A stretch of 64,000 bases of DNA. It comes from Acutalibacteraceae bacterium (GTDB taxonomy: Bacteria > Bacillota > Clostridia > Oscillospirales > Acutalibacteraceae). Where the stretch lies: the NCBI GenBank assembly GCA_045649005.1, contig JAZRPC010000078.1:7393-71392 (forward strand), written 5' to 3'. A program made the position numbers and the translations under genes. Shown here piece by piece: positions 7,239-35,348 of the stretch (positions within the stretch are counted from its first letter, which is position 1; each line of letters opens with the position of its first letter). The notes below the pieces were generated by a model. It worked only from the letters and a program-made list of their open reading frames with translations. It was not told the origin of the DNA and ran no database searches.

Positions 7239-7251
7239 GGGGGTGAGTTGA

Positions 7252-8466
7252 ATGAGTAAAAAAGAAAAGAAAAGTGTTAACGATTGGGCAACCGATGTTC
7301 AGCTTGATATTCCGGAGGACGAAATATGGACATATCAGGTACCCGGCCTTGCGGCACCTCATATCAACAAGCCCTATAAGCATTATAATTTAAAAAAGAC
7401 AGTTTTCGTCATTGTTATTTTAATAGCGGTTTCGCTTTCTATGTTTTTCAGTATAATGGCTTTGCAAAATGATACTTTTGAATATACCGAAACCAAAAAT
7501 GGCATTGAGTTTTCAAAATTCAGCAATACAGGTTACCTTTATGAGCTTGATATTGACTATGTAAGCGACGTTGAGTATATCCCGGGTAACAACGATCCCA
7601 ACACAAACTTCAAGGTTGTTAAGGACGAAAACAAGCCTATTACTTCTGTCAGACAGTTTACTCTTAATTGTGACGACAAAATCAAAACAATCAGAATAGG
7701 CGAAAACGTTGAATACGTTGACACTAAAGCGTTTTATTCCTGCTGGGCATTGCAGAATATTGAGGTTGATGAAAATAACCGCCACTACTGCGACGTTGAC
7801 GGGGTTCTTTACAATAAAGATAAAACAGCACTTCTTTGCTACCCCTGTGACCACGACGAATATCTTCGTCAGAAATACGGCTACGAGAGAGAGCTTTATA
7901 AAGACGAGGTCACACCCGAATATGAAAAAGATGTTCAGACCTACGTTGTTCCTGCAACGGTTGTGAAGCTTGATGAAATGTGCTTTAACTACGCAAACCT
8001 CAGAAAAATCTATTTGCCTGAGGGGCTCAAGAGAATTGAAACTCTGGCGGTTTTCAAGCTCCACGAAAGAGTTGACCAATGGGGCACAACACCATCGCTT
8101 ACCAATATCTATTCATATAAATCCGATGATGTAATCGATACTCATTTTACATCAGAGAAAGCTCTTGGCGAGGTTTACAACTCGTTACCCGAGGGGCTTG
8201 AATTTATCGGTTCCGATGCTTTCAGCTATAATCAGGCGCTCTCATACGTCTATATTCCCGAAAGCGTTACCCACATCGGGCACCACGCTTTCTGGGATAC
8301 GGTGTATAAAGAGGGCGGCGAGCTCAAGGGCGTTAGTGTTATGAACGTGGCTGTTTCTGAAGAGGAATTCGATAAACTTGAAATAGGCGACGATTGGAAG
8401 CCTAAATACGACTATCTTCTCTTTAAAAAGGCTGTTGACACAGCGTTTAACGCAGAAAGAAAATAA
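7252..8466 (+). CDS. membrane-anchored leucine-rich repeat protein (BspA-type LRR)
   Basis: N-terminal TM (VFVIVILIAVSLSMFFSIMAL) followed by BspA-like LRR units (AFYSCWALQNIEV..., CFNYANLRKIYLPEGLKRIE, AFSYNQALSYVYIPESVTHIG). Confidence 0.7.
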   Translation: MSKKEKKSVNDWATDVQLDIPEDEIWTYQVPGLAAPHINKPYKHYNLKKTVFVIVILIAVSLSMFFSIMALQNDTFEYTETKNGIEFSKFSNTGYLYELDIDYVSDVEYIPGNNDPNTNFKVVKDENKPITSVRQFTLNCDDKIKTIRIGENVEYVDTKAFYSCWALQNIEVDENNRHYCDVDGVLYNKDKTALLCYPCDHDEYLRQKYGYERELYKDEVTPEYEKDVQTYVVPATVVKLDEMCFNYANLRKIYLPEGLKRIETLAVFKLHERVDQWGTTPSLTNIYSYKSDDVIDTHFTSEKALGEVYNSLPEGLEFIGSDAFSYNQALSYVYIPESVTHIGHHAFWDTVYKEGGELKGVSVMNVAVSEEEFDKLEIGDDWKPKYDYLLFKKAVDTAFNAERK

Positions 8467-8470
8467 AAAA

Positions 8471-8504
8471 TAACTGTGTATTCATTTTTTTGAATACACA
8501 GTTA
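8471..8504. terminator. bidirectional terminator between convergent genes
   Basis: 14-bp perfect stem taactgtgtattca / tgaatacacagtta with a T6 loop, flanked by A- and T-runs. Confidence 0.75.
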
Positions 8505-8515
8505 TTTCATTTTAT

Positions 8516-9175
8516 TCAGTTTTTATCAGCAAGTCTGAAAACATCCTCCTGCTTGCCGATTACCATTATGTAATCGCCTTGGCTGAAGGTGTAGTTTGCA
8601 CCGGGGGCGGGGGTTATGGCGTCGCCGTTTTTAACGGCAATAATATTTACCTTGAACTTTTTTCTGACGTCAATCTCAACGATTGTCTTGCCAAGCCAAC
8701 CCGAAACCACGGGGATTTCATAAATTGCATATTCATCGGTAATTTGTATAAGGTCAACGATGTTTTTGGCATTGTATTTTATACCTGTTTTTTCAGCAAT
8801 CTGTTTTTCAGCATAAATTACGTCGTCAGCACCGATTTTTAAAAGCAGATTTGCCTGTCTGTCACGGTTAGCAGTTGAAACAACGAATTTTGCACCAAGC
8901 TCCTTGAGCATCGAGGTTATTTCAAGTGAAGCCTGAAAATCCTGTGCTGTGCAGACAAAGCACACATCAAAATTGTTTATACCAAGTGACCTGAGAACAC
9001 CCTCGTTGCGGCAATCGCCCACAAAGGAGTCTGTGAAAACTGTTGTTAATCTGTCGATTTTTTCTGCATCCTTGTCAACAACTACAACGTCGTTACCAAG
9101 CTCTATGAGCTTCATTGCAAGATGCTTTCCGAATCTGCCTGTGCCTATTATAAGAAAAGATTTCATAATTTTCAC
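8516..9175 (-). CDS. trkA: Trk/Ktr potassium uptake system NAD-binding subunit (TrkA/KtrA)
   Basis: 219 aa with an RCK_N Rossmann motif (IIGTGRFG) and a C-terminal RCK_C domain. It lies directly downstream of trkH. Confidence 0.9.
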   Translation of the reverse strand: MKIMKSFLIIGTGRFGKHLAMKLIELGNDVVVVDKDAEKIDRLTTVFTDSFVGDCRNEGVLRSLGINNFDVCFVCTAQDFQASLEITSMLKELGAKFVVSTANRDRQANLLLKIGADDVIYAEKQIAEKTGIKYNAKNIVDLIQITDEYAIYEIPVVSGWLGKTIVEIDVRKKFKVNIIAVKNGDAITPAPGANYTFSQGDYIMVIGKQEDVFRLADKN

Positions 9176-9177
9176 CT

Positions 9178-10521
9178 TTAACCAACCAATATTTTTTCTT
9201 CGGGTCTGTCTAACGGAACATTCATACGTTTTTCTGCAAGTGAGAGCATCAACGTTAAACCTCCCACACGTCCGCCAAACATTAAAAGAGCAATAATAAT
9301 TTTCGATGCAATGCAGAGGGTGGATGTAATTCCCCGTGTGAGTCCAACCGTGCCCACTGCAGAAATAACTTCAAATAAAACGGTTGAAATGTCGCTGCTT
9401 TCAATAGCAGAGATTACAATAGCCGCAACCAAAGAAGCCGACACGTAAACCGTGAAAATTGCAGATGCCTGTTTGAGTGCATCGTCGGGCAGACGTCTTT
9501 TGAAAATTTGAGGGTGGGTGTCGTGACGTGCGGCAGCAATCATTGAAAGAACAAGCACCGCAAGGGTAGTGGTTTTTAAACCGCCTGCGGTGGAGCCGGG
9601 GCTACCGCCCACAAGCATCAGAATATCGGTTATTATTTCACTACTGTCACCCATAGCGTTTAGGTCAACCGTGTTCATACCCGCAGTTCTTGGGGAAACC
9701 GCCATAAATGCGGCGTTGACTATCTTGTCGAATAAATTCATATCCCTTAATACACCGTTGTATTCAAAAACAAAGAACAGTATCAAGGGTATGAAAACAA
9801 GTGTTGCGGACGTTGATAATACAAGCTTCGAGTGCAGAGAATATTTCTTTAGCTTTGTTTTATATGTTAAAACGTCTGACCAGACGAGGAAACCTATACC
9901 ACCGATAGAAATAAGAAGCATTATGGTTATCAGAACTATCGGGTCATCTGAAAAATGGGTGAATGATGAGAATTTTTCGTATTTACCCATTAAATCGAAG
10001 CCTGCGTTACAGAAAGCGGAGATTGAATGGAACACAGCATTGTAAACACCTTGCCCCCATCCCATTTTCGGAATGAATCTGCAGGCAAGGATAATTGCAC
10101 CAAGCCCCTCGAAAAGAAGAGTGCCTTTAATAATGCGTTTAAGCAGAACAACAACACCACTCAATCTCAGGTTACCCTCTGCCTGCATTAGCAATCTGCG
10201 TTCATACAAGCCAATCCGCTTTTTCAAGAAAACGGAAAAGGTGGATATAAACACCATAAAACCCAATCCGCCGATTTGTATAAGGGTTAAGATAACAATT
10301 TGACCGAAAAGTGACCAATAGGTGCAGGTGTCAAAAACGATAAGACCTGTGACACAGCCGGCACTCGTTGCGGTAAATAACGCATCAATGGGGGAGGTGA
10401 ATTCACCGTTTGCAGATGATATGGGCAGGCACAGCAGGATTGTTCCCAACAGTATCATCATAACAAAGCTCAGAACGATTATCTGAGTGTACGTAAGCTT
10501 TTTGAATAACTTTTTTATCAT
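9178..10521 (-). CDS. trkH: Trk/Ktr potassium transporter membrane subunit (TrkH/KtrB)
   Basis: 447 aa, polytopic, with repeated selectivity-filter-like motifs (TAGCVTGL, CNAGFD, RTAGMN, STAGGLK). Confidence 0.9.
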   Translation of the reverse strand: MIKKLFKKLTYTQIIVLSFVMMILLGTILLCLPISSANGEFTSPIDALFTATSAGCVTGLIVFDTCTYWSLFGQIVILTLIQIGGLGFMVFISTFSVFLKKRIGLYERRLLMQAEGNLRLSGVVVLLKRIIKGTLLFEGLGAIILACRFIPKMGWGQGVYNAVFHSISAFCNAGFDLMGKYEKFSSFTHFSDDPIVLITIMLLISIGGIGFLVWSDVLTYKTKLKKYSLHSKLVLSTSATLVFIPLILFFVFEYNGVLRDMNLFDKIVNAAFMAVSPRTAGMNTVDLNAMGDSSEIITDILMLVGGSPGSTAGGLKTTTLAVLVLSMIAAARHDTHPQIFKRRLPDDALKQASAIFTVYVSASLVAAIVISAIESSDISTVLFEVISAVGTVGLTRGITSTLCIASKIIIALLMFGGRVGGLTLMLSLAEKRMNVPLDRPEEKILVG

Positions 10522-22873: not shown

Positions 22874-23272
22874 ATGATTGACATTATGCTTATGAGGGAG
22901 CTGCATTGTTATAGAAAAATGTATCACGTATTGTTTAAAACAATCAATGGCTGTGTAGATGTTTGCAAGGACCTTGTTGTGCGAGAAAAGCTGATAAAGG
23001 CTATGCAGGATGCAGAGGATATTTACACCGGCGAAGAGTATGAGGGCAAGGTGTTGACCGCAGACGAACGCATAATAGTGGAGCTGCTTTCTTTTATTAT
23101 GGATACCGAAATTTCACGTGTAAAAGAAGCGGATATGAAAATAGTAGATGATTGTGTTCAATGGTCTTTAACAATACAAGACAAGAAGATTGAATACTCG
23201 GAAGAAGAAGCTCGGGCGAAAATCAACAGAATATTAGAAATGGCAGGCATGAAAAAGGATTCAGAACAATAA
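22874..23272 (+). CDS. hypothetical protein (132 aa)
   Basis: ATG at 22874 lies 6 nt after GGAGGG. I recognise no motifs. Confidence 0.55.
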   Translation: MIDIMLMRELHCYRKMYHVLFKTINGCVDVCKDLVVREKLIKAMQDAEDIYTGEEYEGKVLTADERIIVELLSFIMDTEISRVKEADMKIVDDCVQWSLTIQDKKIEYSEEEARAKINRILEMAGMKKDSEQ

Positions 23273-23292
23273 TTGTTCTGAATCCTTTTTTC
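23253..23292. terminator. bidirectional terminator between convergent genes
   Basis: Long palindrome aggattcagaacaat / attgttctgaatcct flanked by an A-run and a T-run. Confidence 0.7.
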
Positions 23293-23293
23293 T

Positions 23294-24121
23294 TTATTCA
23301 ATATTGAGTAAATTGGCTAAATTGTCATACAGAATTGATTTTAATTGAATATCTGACAGACCTAAATCAAATAAAAACTCCAATTCATCCTCTTGCTTCC
23401 ACATCGGAAAATCTGTTCCGAAAATCACTCTGTCTGTGCCGTAAAGGTTGATTATTTCTTTTGCTTTTTCTTTTGAAAGGGCATAGAAGCTGGAGCAGGT
23501 GTCAACGTAGAAATTTTTGTATTTGCACAAAATCTGCGGAGCAGAATCCCACACAGACCATCCGCCGAAATGGGCACCGATTATTGTCAAATCGGGGAAC
23601 ATTTTGAGAATTTTCTCAACTCTGTCGGGGTTGGAGTTATCAAATCTTGAATCACCCGTGTGCAAAAGCACAGGCAGGTGATGCTTGTTGCAGATTTCAA
23701 AAATTCTGATTACCTTGGGGTCGTCAACCTTGAAGCTCTGAATATCCGGATGAAGCTTGACACCCTTTAATCCAAGGTCGATAAGGTGCGTTACATCATC
23801 TTCAAGACTTTCACTTTCGGGGTGAAGTGAACCAAAGCCAATGAATCTTTCGGGGAATTGCCTGACCTCTTCTGCTATAAAGGTGTTTATGCTTTGTGCG
23901 TGGTGGGGAGTTGTTGCAACCGAGGTTACAAGACATTTTTCGACTCCAACCGAATCGCATTGGTTTATGAGTGCTTTTGCCGTGCCCACAAAACCGCAAC
24001 CGTTAATAACCCCGGATTCGCTTATCTGATAAAACGTGTCAATGCTGTCTGTTGCCTTTCGGGCGATTTTGTCGGGGAAAATGTGACAATGGGAATCTAT
24101 TACTTTGAAATTTTTATACAT
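23294..24121 (-). CDS. amidohydrolase-family metal-dependent TIM-barrel hydrolase
   Basis: 275 aa with the N-terminal metal motif IDSHCHIFP, later HTGD and GTDFP. This is the PF04909-like amidohydrolase_2 pattern. Confidence 0.75.
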   Translation of the reverse strand: MYKNFKVIDSHCHIFPDKIARKATDSIDTFYQISESGVINGCGFVGTAKALINQCDSVGVEKCLVTSVATTPHHAQSINTFIAEEVRQFPERFIGFGSLHPESESLEDDVTHLIDLGLKGVKLHPDIQSFKVDDPKVIRIFEICNKHHLPVLLHTGDSRFDNSNPDRVEKILKMFPDLTIIGAHFGGWSVWDSAPQILCKYKNFYVDTCSSFYALSKEKAKEIINLYGTDRVIFGTDFPMWKQEDELEFLFDLGLSDIQLKSILYDNLANLLNIE

Positions 24122-24180
24122 AGCTGAAACCTTCTTTGAAACACAAAAGTCGGGCAGAGCCCGACTTTTCGTTATGCTTT

Positions 24181-26652
24181 TTAAACGCTGCCTGTTTTTT
24201 GAGAATTGTATCTGTCGATTGATTCCTCTCGCATTTTGTATTTGAGAATTTTACCTGCAGCATTCATCGGGAATTCGTTTACAAACAAGAAATATTTAGG
24301 AACCTTGTGCTTAGCAATAGATGCATATCCGTATTCCTTCATTTCCTTTTCGTCGGCTGTTTCGCCCTTGTGAAGAATAATCCAAGCGCAGCATTCCTCA
24401 CCGTATTGCTCATCGGGAACGCCAACAACCTGAACGTCACGAACCTTGGGGTTGGTAAGGTAGAATTCCTCGATTTCACGTGGGTAGAGGTTTTCACCGC
24501 CACGGATAATCATATCCTTGAGTCTTCCCGTAACCTTGTAATATCCGTCGGGAGTTCTCATACAGATATCGCCGGAATGGAGCCAGCCTTCGCTGTCTAT
24601 TGCCTGTGCAGTTGCTTCGGGCATTTTGTAATAGCCCTTCATAATGTTAAAGCCACGGGCAACAAATTCACCGCTTTGACCGTCGGGGAGCTCTTCACCT
24701 GTTTCAGGGTCGATAATCTTACATTCAACACCGGGGAAGGCGCTGCCCACAGTTTCTACACGGTGGTCAAGGTCTTCGTTAACTTCGCCCATAGTACAGC
24801 CGGGCGAAGCCTCTGTCTGGCCGTAAACCGAAATAATCTCACGCATATTCATTTCAACCGAAGCACGGCGCATGAGGTCTGCGGGGCAGTTTGCACCTGC
24901 CATAATGCCCGTTCTCATATATGAGAAATCGGTTTTCGCAAAGTCAGGGTGGCTGAACATTGCAATAAACATTGTGGGAACACCGTTAAAGCAGGTGATT
25001 CGCTCGTCGTTGACACAAGCAAGTGATGACTTGGGTGAGAAATAGGGAATGGGGTAAAGCGTTCCTCCGTGAGTCATCATAGAGGTCATAGAAAGCACCA
25101 TTCCGAAGCAATGGAACATAGGCACCTGAATCATCATACGGTCAGCGGTTGACAAATCCATTCTGTCGCCGATTGTCTTGCCGTTGTTTATGATGTTGCG
25201 GTGTGTGAGCATAACACCCTTCGGGAAGCCTGTTGTACCTGAGGTGTATTGCATATTACAAACATCGTCAGGCTTTACGAGAGATGAGCGTCTGCGGACC
25301 TCTTCTCTCGGAATAAGGGAAGAGCGTGACAGCATCTGCTCCCAGGTAAGGCAACCGTCCATATCAAAGCCGACGGTTACAACGTTACGAAGGAAGGGGA
25401 GGTTTTTTGAATACAAGGGTGAGCCGGGCTCAAGTGTTTTAAGCTCGGGGCAAAGCTCCTCAATAATCTCCTTGTAGTTAATGTCCTTGCAATACTCAAT
25501 CATAACGAGAGTATGTGTGTCTGACTGTCTGAGCAAGTATTCAATTTCGTGAATCTTATATGCTGTGTTAACGGTAACAAGAACTGCACCGATTTTTGTT
25601 GTTGCCCAGAAGGTGATGAACCATTGCGGAACGTTGGTTGCCCAAATTGCAACGTGGTCACCCGCTTTTACACCAAGTGAAATCAAGGCGGCGGCACATT
25701 CGTCAACGTCACGGCGGAATTGCTCATAGGTTCTTGTGTAATCAAGAGTAGGGTACTTGAACGCATACTGGTCAGGATATTTTTCCGCCATTGTGTCAAG
25801 CACTTCTGAAAAGGTTGTGTCTATAACGTCGTACTTTTTCCATACAAACGTACCCGTTTTATCACGGTTGTAATACGCACGGTCATAAACCTTTTTTTCA
25901 CGCCCTAAAGAGGAAATGTAGTTTGTGAAGTGGGTGAGAACTATATCAGCATCGCTGATTTCTTCATTCCAGGCGGCACAGATAAAGCCCTCGTAATTAA
26001 GTGAAGAAAGAGAATTTAATAATTTTTCAACGTCTAAATCGCCTTCGCCGATTAAAACGGTTTTGCCGTCCTTCATATCTCCAAGGCGCACATATTTAAT
26101 GTATGCACCAAGATTTTTGATAGTGGTTTCAGCAGTTTCGCCCGCACCGAAATATGTCCACCTTACGTTCCACGATACACCGATAGCCGCAGAGGCAAAG
26201 TGATTGATAACACCGATTACGTTTTCGGTTTTTGCAAGGTAACCAACGGTTTCAAATAAAATATTGACGTCGCCCGTTTCCGCACGCTTGATTGCCGCTG
26301 ACATCTTTTCGTCGAGCACCTCGAAGGGTGTTTTGACTTCTGTGCGGACAATAACGTTTTCAATGCCCGATGCTGCCGCCATAGTAACGTATTTCTCAAT
26401 AAGCTCGGCAGTAGTTTCCTCGCTTTCAACAGGGGCAGGTATACGAAGTGCCGAAACAGAGAGGTTTCTGTTGACAAGCTTCCTTTTTGCATCGGCGATA
26501 CGGTCACGCCTTAATATGCTGTCGTGATGCGAGCTTCGTTCCTTTATGGCGTCGTAAATTTCAAAGCCTTCAAAACCGTAGTCAAAGGCATAACGACAGG
26601 TGTCAAGAAATGAAGCCCGACTTACGTTCTTGGTTGAAAATACAATTTTCAT
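24181..26652 (-). CDS. fusion protein: xylose-isomerase-like TIM barrel (N) plus AMP-dependent acyl-CoA synthetase/ligase (C)
   Basis: 823 aa. The first ~270 aa look like the sugar-phosphate isomerase/epimerase (AP_endonuc_2) fold. The remainder has adenylate-forming motifs YTSGTTGFPKGV, GQTE, GWLHSGD, DMIIRGGENLYPREIE and AGKILK. The GAGGAGG RBS lies inside the 3' end of the upstream gene. Confidence 0.8.
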   Translation of the reverse strand: MKIVFSTKNVSRASFLDTCRYAFDYGFEGFEIYDAIKERSSHHDSILRRDRIADAKRKLVNRNLSVSALRIPAPVESEETTAELIEKYVTMAAASGIENVIVRTEVKTPFEVLDEKMSAAIKRAETGDVNILFETVGYLAKTENVIGVINHFASAAIGVSWNVRWTYFGAGETAETTIKNLGAYIKYVRLGDMKDGKTVLIGEGDLDVEKLLNSLSSLNYEGFICAAWNEEISDADIVLTHFTNYISSLGREKKVYDRAYYNRDKTGTFVWKKYDVIDTTFSEVLDTMAEKYPDQYAFKYPTLDYTRTYEQFRRDVDECAAALISLGVKAGDHVAIWATNVPQWFITFWATTKIGAVLVTVNTAYKIHEIEYLLRQSDTHTLVMIEYCKDINYKEIIEELCPELKTLEPGSPLYSKNLPFLRNVVTVGFDMDGCLTWEQMLSRSSLIPREEVRRRSSLVKPDDVCNMQYTSGTTGFPKGVMLTHRNIINNGKTIGDRMDLSTADRMMIQVPMFHCFGMVLSMTSMMTHGGTLYPIPYFSPKSSLACVNDERITCFNGVPTMFIAMFSHPDFAKTDFSYMRTGIMAGANCPADLMRRASVEMNMREIISVYGQTEASPGCTMGEVNEDLDHRVETVGSAFPGVECKIIDPETGEELPDGQSGEFVARGFNIMKGYYKMPEATAQAIDSEGWLHSGDICMRTPDGYYKVTGRLKDMIIRGGENLYPREIEEFYLTNPKVRDVQVVGVPDEQYGEECCAWIILHKGETADEKEMKEYGYASIAKHKVPKYFLFVNEFPMNAAGKILKYKMREESIDRYNSQKTGSV

Positions 26653-26653
26653 T

Positions 26654-28042
26654 TTATGCCTCCTCGAATACGATTTTGTTCAATGCATTGATATATGCTC
26701 TGATGCTTGCGGCAACAATGTCGGTAGAGGTGCCGTTACCTGAATAAAGCTTGCCGTTGTTGCGAAGCCTTACAAGTGCAGAGCCGAGTGCTTCTTTTCC
26801 CTTAGTTACGGATTGCACCTGGAAATCATCAAGCTCGTAGTGGTGACCTATGCACTGCTCAATTGCACGGAAAACGGAGTCGATAGGACCGTCACCGTTA
26901 CTTACACCGCAAATGATTTCGTCGTTGCATTTCAAGGTAACCTGAGACATAGAGGCTGACATGTTACTGCTGGTTGTTGTATATGTTTCAAAGTGGTAGG
27001 TGGAGGGAGCCTGCATGGCTGAGCTTGCAATAATTGCCTCAAATTCCTTGTAGCCGACGGCACCCTTTCTTTCGCAAACCTGCTTAATAACCTTGTGAAC
27101 ATTGCCGATGTCAGAATCTGAAAGCTCGTAGCCTAACACAGCGGCTGCCTGGGCAATCTGCGCAATTGTGGAATCAGAGTCAATAAGAATCTTTTTACCT
27201 TCGCTTATTGAATTGTTGTTTTCATATTCATCGTGGTTAATGCTTGATAACATATCGTCAATGCTTGCGTGGATTTTTGTGTTATTAAGTTTAAATTCGG
27301 CATTAACCTGCTTGCCGCAAGCATTTATTGCGTCGGAAATCTCACCTGTGAGAAGTGTGTTTTTGCCCGCCATTGCACATTTAATGCCGTCAGCACCGCT
27401 TTTGATTGCAGAAAAAGCACATGCAACTGCCATATTGATGCGGTCAGATACCTGCACGTAAACAGGGATGCTTACGGCTTCCTTTACGCTTGAAACCAAT
27501 TCAGCAATATCATCGGGGGTTGAAGCGCCTGCATCATCGCAGATTGTTACCATGCCGGCACCGCACTGCTCAGCCTCTTTAACTGCGGCAATAAGGAAGT
27601 CTTTATCTGCTCTTGTTGCATCAAGTGCAGAAAACTCAACGTCAGAGCAAAGAGCTTTTGCTTCTTTGATGAGCTCTTTGATTCTGTCGAGCATTTTTGC
27701 TTGCTTTACGTGGTATGTGTATTCCATCTGAATGGTGGATACGGGAAGCTCAACCTGAAGGCGGGGCTTCTGAGCATCCTTGATGCAATCCCAAGCGCAC
27801 GAAACGTCTTCGGTTGTGAACCCTACGGGGATTGCGAAAACAGCATTCTGCACGTTCTGGGCGATTGTTTTATAAATAATTTTATCTTCACGAGGGGATT
27901 TTATTGCAGGGATTTCAATAACGTCAACACCGATTTTGTCGGCACAGGCTGCGATTGCTGACTTTTCACGGAATAGCAAGGATACAGCTCTGTCCTCTGA
28001 AATCTTTTTAAGTGTGATGTCTGAAATAATAATTTTTTTCAT
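26654..28042 (-). CDS. 2-isopropylmalate synthase-like protein lacking the catalytic metal ligands but retaining the LeuA C-terminal regulatory domain
   Basis: This is an HMGL/LeuA-like TIM barrel, but DTTLRDGEQ is replaced by DITLKKISE and HCHNDLGLAV by QVSDRINMAV. The C-terminus (GDGPIDSVFRAIEQ...DIVAASIRAYINALNKI) matches the LeuA dimerisation/allosteric domain. The likely start is the second ATG (28042), with proper RBS spacing; the ORF track extends to 28051. Confidence 0.7.
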   Translation of the reverse strand: MKKIIISDITLKKISEDRAVSLLFREKSAIAACADKIGVDVIEIPAIKSPREDKIIYKTIAQNVQNAVFAIPVGFTTEDVSCAWDCIKDAQKPRLQVELPVSTIQMEYTYHVKQAKMLDRIKELIKEAKALCSDVEFSALDATRADKDFLIAAVKEAEQCGAGMVTICDDAGASTPDDIAELVSSVKEAVSIPVYVQVSDRINMAVACAFSAIKSGADGIKCAMAGKNTLLTGEISDAINACGKQVNAEFKLNNTKIHASIDDMLSSINHDEYENNNSISEGKKILIDSDSTIAQIAQAAAVLGYELSDSDIGNVHKVIKQVCERKGAVGYKEFEAIIASSAMQAPSTYHFETYTTTSSNMSASMSQVTLKCNDEIICGVSNGDGPIDSVFRAIEQCIGHHYELDDFQVQSVTKGKEALGSALVRLRNNGKLYSGNGTSTDIVAASIRAYINALNKIVFEEA

Positions 28043-28082
28043 TTTGCTCATCCTTTCAGCAGATAAAATATAATGTAATATA

Positions 28083-28371
28083 AATAGCCAATAAAAAAGC
28101 CCTGAGATTCGAAAATCTCAGGGACGAATTTTTAAAAAATCCGTGGTACCACCCCGGTTACTGACAAAGGTCAGTCACTCATTAGGACTCTTAATTAAGT
28201 CTGTAGCCATGGTAACGGGGCCGCCGTAACTCCTTACACGAGGTGTCGGTTGGGGAGCTCTGCTCCGGAACGAGACCGAATTTTTGCAACGCACCGACTC
28301 ACAGCAACCGTCGGCTCTCTGAAACGTGAAACCAAAAACACGTAATTCCTTCATCGCATTTGAAAAATATT
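28083..28371 (-). promoter_or_regulatory. T-box leader, specifier read as CUC (Leu)
   Basis: Read on the minus strand: K-turn GCGAUGAAGGAA...UUCCGGAGCA and the AGAGAG bulge. The distal loop is GGUUGCUGUGAG. Specifier CUC followed by a purine immediately precedes the lower helix (28272-28274). The T-box sequence is GGGGUGGUACCACGG (28141-28155). The terminator is cccugagauu/aaucucaggg plus U6 (28083-28113). Confidence 0.85.
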
Positions 28372-28377
28372 GAAAGA

Positions 28378-28406
28378 ATGATAACATTCTTTGGTTTCTT
28401 TGTCAA
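28378..28406 (-). promoter_or_regulatory. sigma-A promoter of the Leu T-box operon
   Basis: On the minus strand: TTGACA (28406-28401), 17-nt spacer, TATCAT (28383-28378). Confidence 0.6.
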
Positions 28407-28446
28407 CACTTTTTTATAAAAAATTAAACAAATAGCAAAAAAACTC

Positions 28447-28475
28447 TTGACACATAATATATAAAGTGATAAAAT
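28447..28475 (+). promoter_or_regulatory. sigma-A promoter of the first plus-strand T-box operon
   Basis: TTGACA (28447-28452), 17-nt spacer, TAAAAT (28470-28475). Confidence 0.65.
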
Positions 28476-28484
28476 CCTTGCAAT

Positions 28485-28766
28485 TGAAAATATCACAAAT
28501 AAAAGCTGTGACGAAGACGGTTGAAAATTACAACTTCCAGAGAGTCGGCGGTTGCTGCGAGCCGATAGCTTGTGTTTTCAAAACCTATCACTTCTGAGCT
28601 GAAGGTCCGAAAAATTTTTTTAGTAGGCGCCTTCCGAGAATGCTGCGTTAGTGCAACGGGGTTGTTGGACTCCTGAGTGGCAATTTTATTGCAATTTGAG
28701 TGGTACCGCGGATTAATTTTCGTCTCAAAGTAAAACCAAAGGGTTTTGTTTTGGGGCGTTTTTTAT
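28485..28766 (+). promoter_or_regulatory. T-box leader, specifier read as AUC (Ile)
   Basis: K-turn GCUGUGACGAAG...CUUCUGAGC, AGAGAG, distal loop GGUUGCUGCGA. AUC followed by A lies directly 5' of the lower-helix strand CUUC (28587-28590). The T-box sequence is AAUUUGAGUGGUACCGCG (28694-28710). The terminator stem is 28721-28758 plus U6. Confidence 0.85.
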
Positions 28767-28807
28767 TTGTGAGTTTTTGATAATGCTTTATGAAGGAAGG
28801 AATCATT

Positions 28808-31081
28808 ATGCAGAACAATTCAGTTACAAACAAGCTTGCAGAGGTCGCAAAGCGTATTGGTGAACTCCGTGACATTTACGGCTTTTCTGTTAAGGAAATG
28901 GCTGAAAAAACCGAACTCACATTGGAGGAATATCTCTCTTTTGAACAAGCAAAAGAGGATTTGCCCTTCTCTTTTATTCACAAATGTGCTCTTGCTTTTG
29001 ACGTTGAAATAACAGACCTTCTTGAGGGTCAGAGTGCAAAGCTCACAACATACAACGTAACACGTAGGGGAAAGGGTCAGACAACAGCTAATGAAGATGG
29101 TATTCTGATTCAGAATCTTGCACCTAAGTTCAGAAATAAGCTTGCAAATCCCTATTGGGTTAAATATGAATACAGAAGCGAGCTTCAGTCTATGCCCATT
29201 GAGCTTGCAACTCACTCGGGTCAGGAGTTTGACCTTGTTATCAAGGGCTCCCTTAAAGTTCAGATTGGTGAGCATACAGAAATTCTTCACGAGGGTGACA
29301 GCATTTTCTACAAAAGCTCAATTCCTCACGGTATGATCGCTGTTAATGGCGAGGATTGTCTTTTTCTTGCTATGGTTATGGCTGAGGATGAAGAGGTTGC
29401 AGACACAAATATGAACGCTGTCAGCGTTGCAGACACCACGAAGAGAATCCCTCTCATCTGCGACAAATTCATTAAAACAACCGAGGATGAGAACGGTGTT
29501 TGCACCGGTATAGATTTCGAAAACGAAGATGAATTCAACTTTGCTTTCGACGTTGTTGACGAAATCGGCAGACAGTATCCTGAAAAGCTTGCTATGCTTC
29601 ATATTGCAGACGATATGACTGAGCACCGTTTTACCTTCAAGGATATTAAAGAGGGTTCATCACAGGCGGCAAACTATTTCAAATCCTTGGGCATCAAAAA
29701 GGGTGACAGAGTTCTTCTTGTTCTCAAGCGTAACTATCAGTTCTGGTTGGCAATTCTCGGTCTTCATAAGCTTGGTGCAGTTGCAATCCCCGCAACAAAT
29801 CAGCTTGTTGTTCATGATTATGAATACCGCTTCAATGCCGCAGGTGTTTCCGCTGTTGTTGTAACCGCCGACGGTGTTGCAACCGATTACATCGACGAGG
29901 CTCAGAAAAATTGCCCCACTCTTAAAACAAAAATCGTTGCCAACGGCAAAAAAGAGGGTTGGCATTGCTTTGATGAAGAATATGCTCTCTTCAGCCGCCG
30001 ATTTGTCCGTGCTGAGGATGCACCCTGTGGTAACGACCCCATGATTATGTTCTTCACATCCGGCACAACAGGCTACCCGAAAATCGCAACCCATTCCCAT
30101 AAATATCCCTTGGGTCATTTTCTTACAGCTAAATACTGGCATTGTGTTGAACGTGACGGAATCCATTTCACAATTTCCGAAACGGGTTGGGGTAAGGCTC
30201 TTTGGGGCAAGCTCTACGGACAATGGCTTTGCGAGGGTGCAGTTTTCGTTTATGACTTTGAACGCTTTGATGCTTCAAAGATTCTTCCTATGTTTGCAAA
30301 GTACAATATCACAACCTTCTGTGCACCCCCCACAATGTACAGAATGCTTATAAAACAAGATATTTCACAGTATGATTTGTCATCAATAAAGCACGCCACA
30401 ACAGCGGGTGAGGCTCTTAACCCCGAGGTTTTCAAGCAGTTTGAAAAAGCAACAGGTCTCAGAATCCACGAGGGCTTCGGTCAGACTGAAACAACTCTTT
30501 CAATCGCAAACTTCAAAGGCACTAAAATTAAAATCGGAGCTATGGGTCAACCCACACCTCTTTATGATATCGATATAGTTGACCCCGACGGCAGACCCGT
30601 TGCCGACGGCGAAACAGGCGAAATTGTTGTTCATACTGACGGCAAGATTCCCTGCGGTCTTTTCCTTGGTTATTATAACGACCAAGAGAAAACAGACGAG
30701 GTGTGGCACGATGGTCTTTACCACACAGGTGACACCGCATGGCGTGATGAGGACGGTTATCTCTGGTACGTTGGTCGTGTCGATGACGTTATCAAATCAT
30801 CCGGCTACCGCATCGGACCATTCGAAATCGAAAATGTTATTATGGAGCTCCCTTATGTTCTTGAGTGTGGTGTTTCTGCCGCTCCCGATGAGGTGAGGGG
30901 TCAGGTTGTTAAAGCAAGCATTGTTCTGACCCCCGGCACAGAAGGAACAGAAGAACTCAAGAAAGAGATTCAGAAATATGTAAAGGAGCATACAGCACCT
31001 TACAAATATCCCAGAATCGTTGTTTTCCGTGATGAGCTTCCTAAGACAATCAGCGGCAAAATCATAAGAAATAAGCTTTGA
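28808..31081 (+). CDS. fusion protein: XRE-type HTH plus cupin plus AMP-forming (medium-chain type) acyl-CoA synthetase
   Basis: ATG at 28808 follows a GGAAGG RBS. The HTH_3-like N-terminus is LRDIYGFSVKEMAEKTELTLEEYLSFE. The cupin motif is HSGQEFDLVIKGSLKVQIGEH...GDSIFY...PHG. The ACS body has FFTSGTTGYPK, GFGQTE, YHTGD, GRVDDVIKSSGYRIGPFEIE and PKTISGKI. Confidence 0.85.
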   Translation: MQNNSVTNKLAEVAKRIGELRDIYGFSVKEMAEKTELTLEEYLSFEQAKEDLPFSFIHKCALAFDVEITDLLEGQSAKLTTYNVTRRGKGQTTANEDGILIQNLAPKFRNKLANPYWVKYEYRSELQSMPIELATHSGQEFDLVIKGSLKVQIGEHTEILHEGDSIFYKSSIPHGMIAVNGEDCLFLAMVMAEDEEVADTNMNAVSVADTTKRIPLICDKFIKTTEDENGVCTGIDFENEDEFNFAFDVVDEIGRQYPEKLAMLHIADDMTEHRFTFKDIKEGSSQAANYFKSLGIKKGDRVLLVLKRNYQFWLAILGLHKLGAVAIPATNQLVVHDYEYRFNAAGVSAVVVTADGVATDYIDEAQKNCPTLKTKIVANGKKEGWHCFDEEYALFSRRFVRAEDAPCGNDPMIMFFTSGTTGYPKIATHSHKYPLGHFLTAKYWHCVERDGIHFTISETGWGKALWGKLYGQWLCEGAVFVYDFERFDASKILPMFAKYNITTFCAPPTMYRMLIKQDISQYDLSSIKHATTAGEALNPEVFKQFEKATGLRIHEGFGQTETTLSIANFKGTKIKIGAMGQPTPLYDIDIVDPDGRPVADGETGEIVVHTDGKIPCGLFLGYYNDQEKTDEVWHDGLYHTGDTAWRDEDGYLWYVGRVDDVIKSSGYRIGPFEIENVIMELPYVLECGVSAAPDEVRGQVVKASIVLTPGTEGTEELKKEIQKYVKEHTAPYKYPRIVVFRDELPKTISGKIIRNKL

Positions 31082-31239: not shown

Positions 31240-31509
31240 TTGAATAAAAAGGCGTTGAAGAAAAGGGCGCAATCATTTCACCTTGCAGAGAAGTGGCGGT
31301 TGGTGCAAGCCACAGGTTGAGAGATTGATGTTTGTAGTTTCCGAGCCGGGAGGAAGAACAGCTTTCGCTTAGTAGAACCTCTCCGTGATTGCTGCGTAAA
31401 GGCATAGAAGTTGTTGGACTTCGAGAGAGGCAGTTTAAACTGCAATTTGAGTGGTACCGCGGGTATATTTTTACTCGTCTCAAAGAATATCTTTGGGACG
31501 AGTTTTTTA
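31240..31509 (+). promoter_or_regulatory. T-box leader, specifier read as GUA (Val)
   Basis: K-turn GGCGUUGAAGAAA...UUUCCGAGCC, AGAGA, distal loop GGUUGGUGCAA. GUA followed by G lies directly 5' of the lower-helix strand UUUC (31334-31337). The T-box sequence is AAUUUGAGUGGUACCGCG (31445-31461). The terminator is cucgucucaaag/cuuugggacgag (31474-31502) plus U6. Confidence 0.8.
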
Positions 31510-31539: not shown

Positions 31540-33834
31540 ATGGACAAAATCACCGGTCTTGATTTTAAAATCAAGGAGATGGCTGCCCGTATTCGGGAAT
31601 TGCGTGAAATTGAGGGCTACACCACAGCCGAGATGGCTTCAAAAACGGGTGTTGCCGAAAGTGAATACATTGCTTGCGAAAATGGTGAAAGCGATCTTAA
31701 CTTTGCATTCATTTATCGTTGTGCACTTGCGTTCAATGTTGATGTTTCAAGCATCATAGAGGGTAGCACACCCAAGCTCACAAACTACGTTTTCACAAAA
31801 GCGGGTAAAGGGCAGAAGATTGAAAAAGCTCACGGAATGACTTATTTCAACCTTGCTTCAAAATTCAAAAATAAAATTGCCGAGCCTCTTTTTGTTGAGG
31901 CTACATACAGCGAAGAAAATCAGAATAAAGATATTGAGCTCACTTCTCACGACGGTCAGGAGCTTGACATTGTTGTTGAAGGTAAGCTGAAGGTTCAGGT
32001 GGGTGAGCACTCAGAGATTCTCGGCCCCGGTGACAGCATCTATTATGATTCTCTCACCCCTCACGGTATGATTGCTGTTGACGGTAAGGATTGTACCTTC
32101 TACGCTATCGTTCTTAATCCGTCGGGTGAGCCTATCCCTGAGCTTCAGCACGTGAAGACTGAGGAGTATAAAGAACCTGTCAAGGTTAAAGAGGATAAAA
32201 AAGAAAGAATTTATCATAAATTCATTGATGTTGAGCGTAACGAAAAAGGTACACCCACATCAATCAAATTTAAAAATACAGAAAACTTCAACTTTGCATA
32301 TGACCTTATTGATGCTCTCGCAGACAGGGAGCCCGATAAATTGGCAATGCTTCATATTGCAAGAGATAAGACCGAAAGAAGATTCACTTTTAAGGATATG
32401 AAGCGTGGCTCCGCTCAGGCGGCGAACTACTTTAAATCCTTGGGCATCAAAAAGGGCGACAGGGTTATGCTCATACTCAAGCGCCATTACCAGTATTGGT
32501 TTGCAATGCTCGGTCTTAATAAATTGGGTGCTATCGGTATACCTGCTCCCAACCAGTTGCAGGAGCACGACCTTGAATATCGTTTCCAGGCTGCGGGTAT
32601 CAAGGCAATTATCTGCACAACAGACGGCGACGTTGCAAATCAGGTTGATATGGCGGCTGAAAAGTGCCCCGACCTTAAAATCAAAATCGCAGTTGGCGAA
32701 GAACGTGACGGTTGGAGAAATTACGACGAAGAAAGTAAGCTCTTCAGCTCCCATTACGAAAGGGGCGAAAATGCTCCTGGTGGCGACGATTTGATGCTTA
32801 TGTTCTTCACATCGGGCACAACAGGCTACCCCAAAATTGCCGCACATAGCTACACATACGCTCTCGGTCATTTCCACACAGCCAAATATTGGCATAATGT
32901 TGACCCCGACGGCCTTCATTTCACAATTTCTGACACAGGCTGGGCAAAGTCTATGTGGGGCAAATTCTACGGCCAATGGCTTTGCGAAGCGGCTCTTTTC
33001 GTTTACGACTTTGACCGCTTTGATGCAGCAGACATTCTTCCCATGTTTGCAAAACACAACATCACAACGTTCTGTGCACCGCCTACAATGCTCAGAATGA
33101 TGATAAAACAAGATATTTCAAAATACGATTTCTCTTCCGTTAAGCATATGACAACAGCGGGCGAGGCTCTTAACCCCGAGGTTTATCGTCAATTCGAAAA
33201 GGCAACAGGCCTCCAGATTCTCGAAGGCTTTGGTCAGACTGAAAGCACAATGATTATCGGTAATATGACAGGCGCACCCCACAAAATCGGTTCTATGGGT
33301 AAACCTGCTCCCATTTATGATGTTTGCCTTGTTGATGCAGACGGCAACAAAGTTAATGTCGGTGAAAATGGTGAAATCGTTGTCAACGTAAAAGATGGCG
33401 CTCCCTGTGGTCTCTTCAAGGGCTACTATAACGACGAAGAAAAAACCAAAGAGGTTTGGCACGACGGCTACTATCATACAGGTGACGTTGCCTGGATGGA
33501 TGAAGACGGCTTCTATTGGTATGTTGGTCGTGTGGATGACGTTATTAAATCCTCAGGCTATCGTATAGGTCCATTTGAAATCGAAAGCGTTATTATGGAG
33601 CTTCCCTACGTTCTTGAGTGCGGCGTTTCTGCTGCTCCTGATGAAGTCAGAGGACAGGTTGTTAAAGCAAGCATAGTTCTTGTTCCCGGAACAGAGGGTA
33701 CGGAAGAACTCAAAAAAGAGATTCAACAGTACGTTAAGGAGAAAACTGCTCCTTATAAATATCCCCGAATCGTTGTATTCCGTGATGAATTGCCAAAAAC
33801 AACCAGTGGTAAGATTCAGCGAAATAAATTATAA
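31540..33834 (+). CDS. fusion protein: XRE-type HTH plus cupin plus AMP-forming acyl-CoA synthetase (tandem paralog of 28808-31081)
   Basis: ATG at 31540 follows a GGAGGAAAG RBS, and the domain order is the same. The last 101 residues differ from the paralog at only 6 positions. In a 56-residue HTH segment, 26 residues are identical. Confidence 0.85.
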   Translation: MDKITGLDFKIKEMAARIRELREIEGYTTAEMASKTGVAESEYIACENGESDLNFAFIYRCALAFNVDVSSIIEGSTPKLTNYVFTKAGKGQKIEKAHGMTYFNLASKFKNKIAEPLFVEATYSEENQNKDIELTSHDGQELDIVVEGKLKVQVGEHSEILGPGDSIYYDSLTPHGMIAVDGKDCTFYAIVLNPSGEPIPELQHVKTEEYKEPVKVKEDKKERIYHKFIDVERNEKGTPTSIKFKNTENFNFAYDLIDALADREPDKLAMLHIARDKTERRFTFKDMKRGSAQAANYFKSLGIKKGDRVMLILKRHYQYWFAMLGLNKLGAIGIPAPNQLQEHDLEYRFQAAGIKAIICTTDGDVANQVDMAAEKCPDLKIKIAVGEERDGWRNYDEESKLFSSHYERGENAPGGDDLMLMFFTSGTTGYPKIAAHSYTYALGHFHTAKYWHNVDPDGLHFTISDTGWAKSMWGKFYGQWLCEAALFVYDFDRFDAADILPMFAKHNITTFCAPPTMLRMMIKQDISKYDFSSVKHMTTAGEALNPEVYRQFEKATGLQILEGFGQTESTMIIGNMTGAPHKIGSMGKPAPIYDVCLVDADGNKVNVGENGEIVVNVKDGAPCGLFKGYYNDEEKTKEVWHDGYYHTGDVAWMDEDGFYWYVGRVDDVIKSSGYRIGPFEIESVIMELPYVLECGVSAAPDEVRGQVVKASIVLVPGTEGTEELKKEIQQYVKEKTAPYKYPRIVVFRDELPKTTSGKIQRNKL

Positions 33835-33857
33835 TGTATAAAAAGAAGGTGAAAAAG

Positions 33858-34520
33858 ATGCAAAGTAAACGAATGACCCTTTTTGCAGGGCACTACGGTA
33901 GCGGCAAAACAAATATTGCCGTTAACTACGCTTTGTATCTTAAAAGCCTTGGCGAAAACGTCGTTATTGCTGACCTTGATATCGTTAATCCCTATTTCAG
34001 AACACGAGACAGTCTTGAGGATTTGAACAAAGCAGGAATCAAATTGATTTCCTCAGCGTTCGCAAACTCAAACGTTGATTTACCTGCTTTGCCGCAGGAT
34101 GTTTATTCTCTTCTTGACAAACGTGAAGAAAAGGCGATAATGGATATTGGCGGTGATGACCGTGGTGCTTACGCTTTGGGTAGATATGCAGACGCTATTA
34201 AAGATGAAAACGACTATGAAATGCTTTTCGTTTTCAATAAATATCGTCCGCTAACACCCGATGCAGAATCTGCTTTTGAAATAATGCAGGAAATTGAAGC
34301 GGCGTGCAAGGTTAAATTCACCGCAATAGTCAATAACTCCAACCTTGGTGAAAGCACCACGGCAGAGGATGTTTTAAATTCGGTTGACAGTGCCGAAAAA
34401 TTGTCTGAATTAACAGGCTTGCCTGTTAAAATGACAACTGTCACAGAAAATTTAGTTAATAATCTCAACGGAAAAATTTCAAATCTGTTTCCGCTGACTT
34501 TACAAAAAAAGATAATTTAG
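33858..34520 (+). CDS. P-loop NTPase (MinD/CooC-like SIMIBI fold), function unknown
   Basis: Walker A GHYGSGKT and Walker-B-like VVIADLD. The ATG at 33858 follows a GAAGGTG RBS (track ORF starts at 33834). Confidence 0.6.
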   Translation: MQSKRMTLFAGHYGSGKTNIAVNYALYLKSLGENVVIADLDIVNPYFRTRDSLEDLNKAGIKLISSAFANSNVDLPALPQDVYSLLDKREEKAIMDIGGDDRGAYALGRYADAIKDENDYEMLFVFNKYRPLTPDAESAFEIMQEIEAACKVKFTAIVNNSNLGESTTAEDVLNSVDSAEKLSELTGLPVKMTTVTENLVNNLNGKISNLFPLTLQKKII

Positions 34521-34531
34521 GAGGCAGAAAA

Positions 34532-34738
34532 ATGGCAAAAGTAACATTCGCAGAAAATGTTTGCAAGGGTTGCGGTTTGTGCGTAACTGCTTGTCCCAAG
34601 AAAATTGTGGAACTTGATTCTGCAAAGCTTAACGCAAAAGGTCATCATCCTGCACATTGTATCGATGATAGCAAGTGTATCGGTTGCGCATTTTGTGCAA
34701 CAATGTGCCCCGACTGCGCTATAACTGTTGAAAGGTAA
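34532..34738 (+). CDS. 2x[4Fe-4S] ferredoxin, delta-subunit type of 2-oxoacid:ferredoxin oxidoreductases
   Basis: 68 aa with two CxxCxxCxxxCP motifs (CKGCGLCVTACP, CIGCAFCATMCP). It lies immediately upstream of a KorA/VorB-like start. Confidence 0.8.
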   Translation: MAKVTFAENVCKGCGLCVTACPKKIVELDSAKLNAKGHHPAHCIDDSKCIGCAFCATMCPDCAITVER

Positions 34739-34748
34739 GGTGAAATAA

Positions 34749-35348
34749 ATGGGTGAGAAAGTTTTAATGAAAGGTAATGAGGCTATCGCCGAGGCTGCAA
34801 TCAGAGCAGGTTGTATGCATTATTTCGGTTACCCCATTACTCCCCAGACAGAAATTGCCGCATATATGGCAAAAAGAATGCCCAAAGTTGGTGGCGGTCA
34901 GGAGCAGAACGTTCACTCCGGCACGGAGGCAACCCCCGCAATATTCTCATTCGGTGCTGCCGCAAATGCCGCAGGCGACGTGGCTGCAAACTCTGCCTAT
35001 GTTGCAGAACTAAAAAAACAATTGTTGCAGGGCATAGAAAATATATCTTGCGTAACAATAAACTCTCCGGAGGATGCAATCCCCTATATTCTCAACATTT
35101 CAATCCTCGGCCTACCCAGCCAGCCCATTGTTAATTTTATGAGTGACAAGGGCATTTACATTTCCGCAGGCTCTGCTTGCAAAATGGGTCACAGAAGCCC
35201 TGTGCTCACAGCTATGGGTCTTTCGCCCGAGGTTACAGACAGCGCTGTGAGAATCAGCCTGAGCAGATACAACACACCTGAAGAGATTGATTATCTAATA
35301 AGCGCAATTACAGAAGCCGCTCAAAAATACGGCAAAAAACAAAGGTGA
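34749..35348 (+). pseudogene. chimeric ORF: N-terminal ~50 aa of a 2-oxoacid:ferredoxin oxidoreductase alpha subunit fused in frame to the C-terminal ~150 aa of cysteine desulfurase NifS/IscS
   Basis: Residues 1-49 ([43 protein letters not shown]) are a typical KorA/VorB N-terminus. From [14 protein letters not shown] onward the sequence is NifS-like ([20 protein letters not shown]...[15 protein letters not shown]). The junction is at GGT GGC GGT (34890-34898). The PLP-lysine region of NifS and all TPP/CoA domains of the oxidoreductase are absent. Confidence 0.75.

Follow-up and report, generated by a model that had tools for sequence, protein, structure and literature searches.

A leucine T-box operon with a TIM-barrel and acyl-CoA ligase fusion as a candidate for isovalerate activation in Clostridia

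A metagenome-assembled genome (MAG) of an Acutalibacteraceae bacterium (assembly GCA_045649005.1, contig JAZRPC010000078.1) contains a single open reading frame (ORF) in which a xylose-isomerase-like TIM barrel is joined to an acyl-CoA ligase. The stretch of 64,000 nucleotides in which this ORF was found is called here the window. The gene lies on the minus strand (24181-26652) and encodes a protein of 823 residues. The question raised by this locus is what such a fusion does behind a leader that is predicted to respond to leucine, and what its barrel contributes. We consider that the 823-residue protein is probably the isovalerate-CoA ligase of the isovalerate-carboxylation route to leucine, and thus the leucine member of a three-ligase system that makes branched-chain amino acids (BCAAs) from branched acids.

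The fusion gene and its leucine leader

The frame is open without interruption and carries three Pfam domains: PF01261 AP_endonuc_2 (residues 20-229, 45.4 bits, cut-off 31.1), PF00501 (residues 287-675, 318.6 bits, gathering score 29.9) and PF13193 (residues 726-801, 57.4 bits, gathering score 24.5). These domains confirm the first-pass annotation, made from the sequence without database searches, of an isomerase-type TIM barrel joined to a complete acyl-CoA ligase in one ORF; the ligase motifs quoted there, YTSGTTGFPKGV, DMIIRGGENLYPREIE and AGKILK, are each found in the frame. The barrel forms the N-terminus (residues 1-250; 25903-26652, minus strand), and the ligase part, with the N- and C-domains of the ANL superfamily, takes up residues 258-823 together with the stop codon (24181-25881, minus strand). 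The stand-alone ligases nearest to the fusion are 51-52% identical to it and their alignment begins at query residue 258-261, so that the linker between barrel and ligase comprises only a few residues.

The source genome (G000, 78% complete) is fragmented and carries a chimeric join on the same contig near 34994, which might suggest that an assembly or frameshift error has merged two separate genes. However, the uninterrupted frame recurs in hundreds of independent assemblies, complete genomes included, and the junction segment is conserved among the fusions. An open frame of 820-866 residues that runs from the barrel through the junction into the beginning of the ligase is present in 28 of 41 related genomes, which belong to at least nine families of the order and whose barrels range from 93% down to 36% identity. 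At >=89% identity, over 120 protein clusters have the same three Pfam domains, and in an even sample of 399 genomes across the class Clostridia, 209 have a barrel match (E <=1e-20), most of them being fusions of 820-900 residues and some being stand-alone proteins of 270-300 residues. Searches by domain architecture and for relatives thus both find the same arrangement, and the artefact for which the first-pass annotation had proposed a check was rejected on these counts; we give it a negligible chance. The fusion is real and old.

Fragments or full-length copies of the fusion were found in Oscillospiraceae, Ruminococcaceae, Acutalibacteraceae, Christensenellaceae, Lachnospiraceae and a few spirochaete MAGs. 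The nearest named relatives of the window are MAGs of Acutalibacteraceae, and other named loci come from the gut of sheep, goat, deer, buffalo and horse. Source annotations of the copies are only generic ('AMP-binding protein', 'TIM barrel protein', 'fatty-acyl-CoA synthase'). Literature searches on the TIM::ligase fusion, on bacterial isovalerate-CoA ligase and on PRK12583 yielded no characterised fusion member, in keeping with the earlier remark that the domain combination was not known from any characterised enzyme.

The operon is preceded by a T-box leader with terminator and antiterminator (28117-28363, minus strand; Rfam RF00230, 102 bits, gathering score 93). At the specifier position of the cmscan alignment it reads CUC, a leucine codon, followed by G, and a terminator-like hairpin lies by the leader at 28100-28123. 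Judged by covariance score and specifier codon, the leader belongs to the leucine class and would drive the operon, which had already been described as leucine-controlled. Relatives agree with this description: counting covariance-model matches only (a strict sequence regular expression missed most leaders), a scan of 21 related loci besides the window places a T-box before the operon, at either the fusion or the gene upstream of it, in 19 of them (10 loci of the first set and 9 of 11 further named loci). The specifier is clearly CUC or CUG in 17 of these 19 leaders as well as in the window's own, one leader has CCC and one is ambiguous, and the proposed link of the fusion to leucine supply is well borne out by these counts. 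The CCC leader (L081:4300-4542) precedes the same operon in a MAG of Ructibacterium sp. and may reflect an error in sequencing, a switch that no longer works or a shifted specificity. A further T-box of 111 bits with UUC (Phe) at the aligned specifier (L020:2054-2298) was noted 5' of a 435-residue ORF, about 2 kb before the leucine operon of genome G036.

Between leader and fusion lies the gene of a LeuA paralogue of 465 residues, pLeuA (26654-28051, minus strand; PF00682 109.6 bits, PF08502 108.4 bits), whose stop codon is located 1 nt before the ATG of the fusion. This protein consists of a degenerate HMGL-like barrel and an intact LeuA_dimer domain, which is the leucine-binding one. It scores below the cut-off of every LeuA NCBIfam model (best equivalog 255.8 bits against 532), and alignment to the LeuA structures 3ewb and 3rmj shows KKISE in place of RDGEQ and QVS in place of HxH. 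By these marks, pLeuA appears to be catalytically dead and not a 2-isopropylmalate synthase. The dead LeuA stands directly upstream of the fusion in all 80 named loci. The comparison of gene neighbourhoods proposed beforehand, carried out as tblastn synteny over 15 loci, gives the order T-box, dead LeuA, TIM::ligase; G033, G026 and G027, whose three fusions are the most distant ones, have the T-box directly 5' of the fusion and no dead LeuA. Architecture, conservation, T-box class and neighbourhood are in this sense matters of observation.

The ligase, its sister enzymes and a route to leucine

All ANL core motifs are present in the ligase half: the P-loop YTSGTTGFPKGV, scored against (S/T)GTTGxPKG; YGQTE, against YGxTE; the hinge GRLKDMIIRGGEN, against RxKD..GG; and AAGKILK, with the catalytic Lys in GKxxK. 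Across 35 fusions, no variation occurs in the P-loop, YGQTE, the hinge or K801, and the ratio dN/dS of the ligase between the window and its relative G014 is 0.030 (dS 0.6-0.9). By every motif and by both Pfam domains, the ligase half is an ordinary acyl-CoA synthetase of the ANL superfamily.

The best NCBIfam model for the fusion of the window is PRK12583 (NF009233, a fatty acid CoA ligase family), whose cut-off of 832 bits is not reached (665.8 bits; the fusion of G033 scores 728.5 bits). The ligase shares with the PRK12583/FACL-like AMP-forming synthetases the complete architecture of N- and C-domains, the core motifs and the catalytic Lys; in contrast to them, it carries an N-terminal TIM barrel of 250 residues, leucine T-box control and a dead LeuA partner. 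By the NCBI criterion, it is a related branch and not a PRK12583 member. We take the PRK12583/FACL-like branch to be ACSF2-like in its placement. The MbcS model (NF047394, cut-off 850 bits) is absent from the 25 best models for the fusion.

Two sister ligases lie on the opposite strand. A divergent T-box with specifier AUC (Ile), followed by A (28499-28730, plus strand; RF00230, 105.9 bits), precedes an HTH-cupin::MbcS-like acyl-CoA ligase (28790-31081, plus strand; HTH_19, Cupin_2, AMP-binding, AMP-binding_C), for which MbcS NF047394 is the best model at 439 bits, below its cut-off of 850. The putative substrate of this ligase is 2-methylbutyrate. A third T-box, with specifier GUA (Val), lies at 31246-31485 (plus strand; RF00230, 92.1 bits, gathering score 93, E 7.5e-21 in a search of 601 nt). 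Being just under the Rfam gathering score, it is missed by a default scan. It is followed by a second HTH-cupin::acyl-CoA ligase (31540-33834, plus strand; HTH_19/HTH_3, Cupin_2, AMP-binding, AMP-binding_C) with isobutyrate as the putative substrate, and the start of this gene is probably near 31540, where the T-box is followed by the first ATG in frame, rather than at the TTG at 31411. Because the three ligases are under Leu, Ile and Val T-boxes, elimination leaves isovalerate as the likely substrate of the leucine-controlled one. In their proposed job, the activation of exogenous branched short-chain acids, the fusion resembles MbcS of Staphylococcus aureus and MacS-type synthetases. It differs from its MbcS-like neighbours in being only about 25% identical to them and in having a barrel head instead of their HTH-cupin head, and the leucine ligase seems to have been recruited from another ANL branch than theirs. 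The divergent Leu and Ile T-boxes are separated by 135 nt, and within this gap two near-consensus promoters were also noted back to back (28378-28475), TTGACA-17-TATCAT on the minus strand and TTGACA-17-TAAAAT on the plus strand; the -10 element of each is extended by TG.

The genes that would follow activation are found beyond the sister ligases, all on the plus strand. As part of the BCAA cluster, a P-loop NTPase (33834-34520) is followed by a 2x[4Fe-4S] ferredoxin (34532-34738) and by the first 79 residues of VorB (34749-34994), the alpha subunit of the VorB-type 2-oxoacid:ferredoxin oxidoreductase (VOR). At the start of contig C11 of the same MAG lie VorB residues 85-354, the other two subunits (beta and gamma) and IlvE; for this reason, the contig of the window is probably chimeric or broken near 34994. 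The ORF at this place (34749-35348) runs from VorB residues 1-79 into the C-terminus of a NifS/IscS-like class-V aminotransferase, and ThiI comes next. In the close relative G014, which is 97% complete, the cluster is intact, with P-loop protein, ferredoxin, VorB, beta, gamma and IlvE in this order; its VorB scores 560.7 bits with NF005507 (cut-off 399) and its IlvE 497 bits with NF009897 (cut-off 307). VorB and IlvE lie just upstream of the leucine operon in at least nine named loci, a VorB orthologue of 67-86% identity is present in all five further genomes tested, and in G028 the whole set is on one strand.

The content of the genomes points in the same direction. In seven of them (G000, G014, G007, G028, G002, G038 and G031), pLeuA is the only LeuA_dimer protein, and in G026 no LeuA_dimer protein was found at all. 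LeuB above the cut-off was not found in these eight genomes, where only a paralogue of about 140 bits occurs, and the observed lack of both true LeuA and LeuB therefore covers 8 of the 10 genomes checked. The other two are G033, with four LeuA-type genes and a true LeuB, and G027, with two LeuA-type genes and no LeuB above the cut-off. In G026, a Clostridia genome from the gut that belongs to the same order, an OLE (ornate large extremophilic) RNA was also seen at full length (L039:3907-4530, contig C51; 460 bits).

From this gene content, the following sequence of events is proposed. When tRNA-Leu is uncharged, it would stabilise the antiterminator of the CUC T-box, and the dead LeuA and the TIM::ligase fusion would then be made from translationally coupled genes. 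The ligase domain would convert isovalerate, ATP and CoA to isovaleryl-CoA, a substrate suggested by elimination and gene context. The VorB-type ferredoxin oxidoreductase of the cluster would reductively carboxylate isovaleryl-CoA to 2-oxoisocaproate, and IlvE would aminate the latter to leucine; gene content and the classical Allison pathway both suggest these two steps, and the direction of VOR and the flux to leucine are likewise inferred.

The carboxylation of isovalerate to leucine in rumen bacteria was described by Allison in 1962 and 1966, as cited in PMC7356843 (refs 42, 47). The route has been known from labelling work since the 1960s. The gene set described here matches the route as outlined there, namely acid activation, ferredoxin-dependent reductive carboxylation and transamination, and the habitat fits as well, with related MAGs coming from ruminant and horse gut. 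The classical route was defined by labelling experiments. In the literature searched, no paper assigns the activating enzyme of the route to the fusion.

Alternatively, when leucine is scarce, isovaleryl-CoA could be used chiefly to prime the synthesis of iso-branched membrane fatty acids, and not to make leucine. MbcS-type ligases are reported to act in this way in S. aureus (PMC10026030, PMC11167679), the neighbouring sister ligases are MbcS-like, and a leucine T-box would equally fit a shortage of primer. We regard this as unlikely to be the main role, given that the cluster itself contains VorB, ferredoxin and IlvE, that a dead LeuA predicted to sense leucine is coupled to the ligase, and that genomes without LeuA and LeuB need some route to leucine. 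The two roles are not mutually exclusive.

The barrel, a probable former enzyme

The fold of the barrel is clear. An AlphaFold 2 (AF2) model of the domain alone reaches pLDDT 90.3 and pTM 0.86, and Foldseek places it at probability 1.00 and TM 0.76 next to UlaE (3cqj). It superposes at TM 0.66-0.76 on UlaE, L-ribulose 3-epimerase, AsbF, MJ1311, YcjR and IolI, and both PF01261 membership and the (beta/alpha)8 fold are confirmed. In fold (TM 0.70-0.76) and family profile, the barrel matches UlaE, the 3-dehydroshikimate dehydratase AsbF (3dx5), MJ1311 (3wqo), IolI (1i60) and the ketose 3-epimerases. In contrast to these PF01261 enzymes, its ligands are replaced, it is fused to a ligase and no sugar-metabolism context is present.

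Catalytically active PF01261 members are marked by Glu-Asp-His-Glu at the C-terminal strand ends. The ligand columns were read from a profile of 33 barrels aligned to AsbF (E142, D172, H198) and MJ1311, in which the metal ligands of the family fall in the motifs xET, WDxxH, HxKD and xLEW. In the window, the four positions are occupied by E134, N162, R189 and A227, and only E134 is left of the canonical set. Across the clade of the window, Asp has become Asn, His has become Arg and Glu has become Ala, and the Lys before the conserved Asp is replaced by Gly (G191). This clade comprises about 68 loci with barrel identities of 47-93%; its barrels have E134 and either A, S or D at 227, and N162, R189 and G191 are found in every complete barrel.

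Other clades differ. In the fusions without dead LeuA (G033, G026, G027, P0125 and P0129) and in the split barrels, the full set of E, D, H165, H189, K191 and E227 is kept, and the E-D-H-E ligands are likewise retained in stand-alone relatives of the barrel. The remaining clades linked to a dead LeuA are of two types: in one, D, H, K and E are kept and only H165 is missing; in the other, the site is partially eroded, as N..H.N.V, N..H.A.E, Q..H.N.V or E..H.S.V. Because the ligand state differs by clade and is eroded in various ways in the fusions linked to dead LeuA, the canonical site looks dispensable wherever dead LeuA is present. It was lost more than once; with lineages so few and related, this should be taken as a pattern rather than as a statistical test.

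Loss of the site has not been followed by decay of the domain. Between the window and G014, dN/dS of the barrel is 0.045 (dS 0.6-0.9), so that the barrel is under strong purifying selection, and it evolves faster than the ligase, with about 30% barrel identity at 65-70% ligase identity. The loss of three of the four ligands and of the Lys, together with strong purifying selection, therefore makes it most likely that the barrel in the clade of the window was once an enzyme and has been retained as an accessory head without catalytic activity. Its role might be docking or regulation, possibly exerted jointly with the leucine-binding dead LeuA.

Alternatively, the barrel could still be an enzyme with a remodelled, metal-independent site in which Arg189 replaces the metal, acting on the substrate or product of the ligase, so that the protein would be a truly bifunctional fusion. 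Strong selection on the barrel speaks for this idea, and so do the clade-invariant N162, R189 and G191 and the several pocket residues conserved in all clades. A ligase and a TIM barrel are also encoded by adjacent, split genes in G034, an order that supports a functional link between the two. This split form (L030, contig C10 of G034, 6923-10386) consists of a ligase 52% identical to that of the fusion, a ligand-intact TIM barrel of 25% identity and an overlapping double-GNAT gene. It has two serpin genes and an SSF transporter in its surroundings and lacks a T-box; given this lack and the low identity of its barrel, it was left out of the evidence for a role in leucine supply.

Nevertheless, the site is eroded in different ways in the fusions linked to pLeuA (ENAHNV, ENDHAE, GQAHNV and EEEHSV), as if it could be dispensed with, the isovalerate-to-leucine route requires no additional step, and stand-alone relatives of 47-49% identity occur in unrelated contexts. 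A barrel that is still catalytic is therefore rather improbable in our estimate, slightly more so than a main role of the operon in priming fatty acids. At five loci of stand-alone relatives (43-49% identity), neither a ligase nor a T-box was seen and the neighbours vary, the genes lying after purL, beside a kinase or beside a transposase; these loci gave no hint of a function. Two of them (L043 and L045, in G322 and G064; 47-49% identity, ligands intact) are located directly 3' of the gene of a 1256-residue FGAM synthase (purL), with no ligase nearby.

Several points weigh against the proposal of an isovalerate-CoA ligase with a non-catalytic barrel head. The pocket residues E31, E134, W161, E172, D192, E203 and W228 are conserved across all clades, and such a pocket may leave room for a metal-independent activity. 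As all the ligands are retained in fusions that lack pLeuA, the ancestral barrel was probably an enzyme, and its reaction would lie outside the proposed pathway. The full-length AF2 model gives no confident interface between barrel and ligase (pTM 0.59, linker pLDDT <50, both domains confident), and as a model it neither supports nor excludes a fixed one. No NCBIfam model scores the ligase above its cut-off, isovalerate specificity is suggested by elimination and context, and, with the MAG of the window at 78% completeness, the absence of LeuA and LeuB is best judged from its more complete relatives.

One extension of the favoured reading, an isovalerate-CoA ligase with an accessory head, may be put forward tentatively. 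The barrel without metal and the dead LeuA could together form a leucine-sensing allosteric apparatus on the isovalerate-CoA ligase, the fusion being the long-unassigned activating enzyme of the route. If this were true, end-product feedback would act on the first step of the route, on top of control by the T-box.

The metal hydrolase gene and the significance of the operon

Downstream of the fusion lies a gene for a metal hydrolase of the Amidohydro_2 family with 275 residues (23294-24121, minus strand; PF04909, 105.9 bits, gathering score 26.4), designated here AMH. The PF04909-like hydrolase with an HCH motif noted after the fusion is thus confirmed, the motif being at residues 11-13. Score and ligands (HxH, later His residues, Asp) place the protein in Amidohydro_2, and 12 orthologues show no change at residues H11, H13, K122, H124, H154, H184 and D237; the HxH would lie on strand 1 and the Asp on strand 8. 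Presumably, Lys122 together with HxH, His154, His184 and Asp resembles a Lys-bridged binuclear hydrolase site more than the site of a mononuclear decarboxylase. Among solved structures, AMH is closest in sequence to BB4693 (3irs) and 3cjp of Clostridium acetobutylicum, which share PF04909 and are both uncharacterised, and no characterised close relative of AMH is known.

An AMH orthologue is located within the locus in 38 of the 80 named loci, mostly directly downstream and sometimes 5' of the T-box. In the synteny comparison, it directly follows the fusion in G014, G002, G038 and G028, and in G038 and G028 its gene overlaps that of the ligase. Orthologues of 38-47% identity also occur as single genes in unrelated contexts; at seven such unlinked loci the neighbours are unrelated and no associated T-box is present. 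AMH therefore appears to be an accessory metal hydrolase, a frequent but dispensable neighbour. As it has been recruited in several lineages and arrangements, and overlaps the ligase gene twice, a functional link to the operon is plausible, although not obligatory.

In the window, the two genes are separated by a hairpin (24145-24169, minus strand) with an 11-bp stem including 6 GC pairs. On the minus strand it shows a 7-bp GC core followed by the U-rich tail UUUUGUGUUU, and it looks like a terminator because a GC-rich stem is followed by a U-rich tail on the coding strand. The hairpin reported earlier between these genes does exist, but it is stronger than the 'weak' one described. A long hairpin with a 19-bp stem, found by the terminator scan at 23251-23291, marks the end of the operon and is shared with a convergent ORF of 137 residues.

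The first-pass annotation had considered that the ligase activates a short branched acid and that the Amidohydro_2 protein then carboxylates or decarboxylates a 2-oxoisocaproate-related compound in a non-oxidative, reversible reaction. PF04909 does include reversible decarboxylases (ACMSD, LigW, gamma-RSD and IDCase), and the 38 loci and the two overlaps with the ligase gene could be read in its favour. However, the similarity of AMH to Amidohydro_2 decarboxylase structures (LigW, ACMSD, gamma-resorcylate decarboxylase) is marginal, with E 2e-5 to 1e-2 over parts of the protein only, its best matches being hydrolase-like. Its invariant residues fit a binuclear hydrolase site. About half of the operons lack the gene, its orthologues elsewhere stand without a T-box, and the terminator-like hairpin lies between it and the ligase. 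As a dedicated carboxylating enzyme, VOR, is already present in the cluster and would provide this step, a (de)carboxylase role for AMH is unlikely, and that version of the pathway as a whole is highly improbable; the carboxylation would be better assigned to the VorB-type oxidoreductase.

The architecture itself is common in sequence databases under generic names. What is new lies in the details of the combination: a predicted CoA ligase for branched acids under T-box control, its barrel head remodelled and a pseudoenzyme at its side. In the literature searched, the genes of the activation step and their control are without assignment, and this operon is a concrete candidate for them. About half of the sampled Clostridia carry it, and among these are many abundant gut or rumen organisms without the standard leucine pathway. 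An enzyme domain turned into a conserved non-catalytic module beside a second pseudoenzyme would also provide a case for studying the origin of accessory and regulatory domains. The proposal predicts that carriers of the operon depend on branched short-chain fatty acids supplied by their neighbours, which would bear on their cultivation and on models of cross-feeding in the gut.

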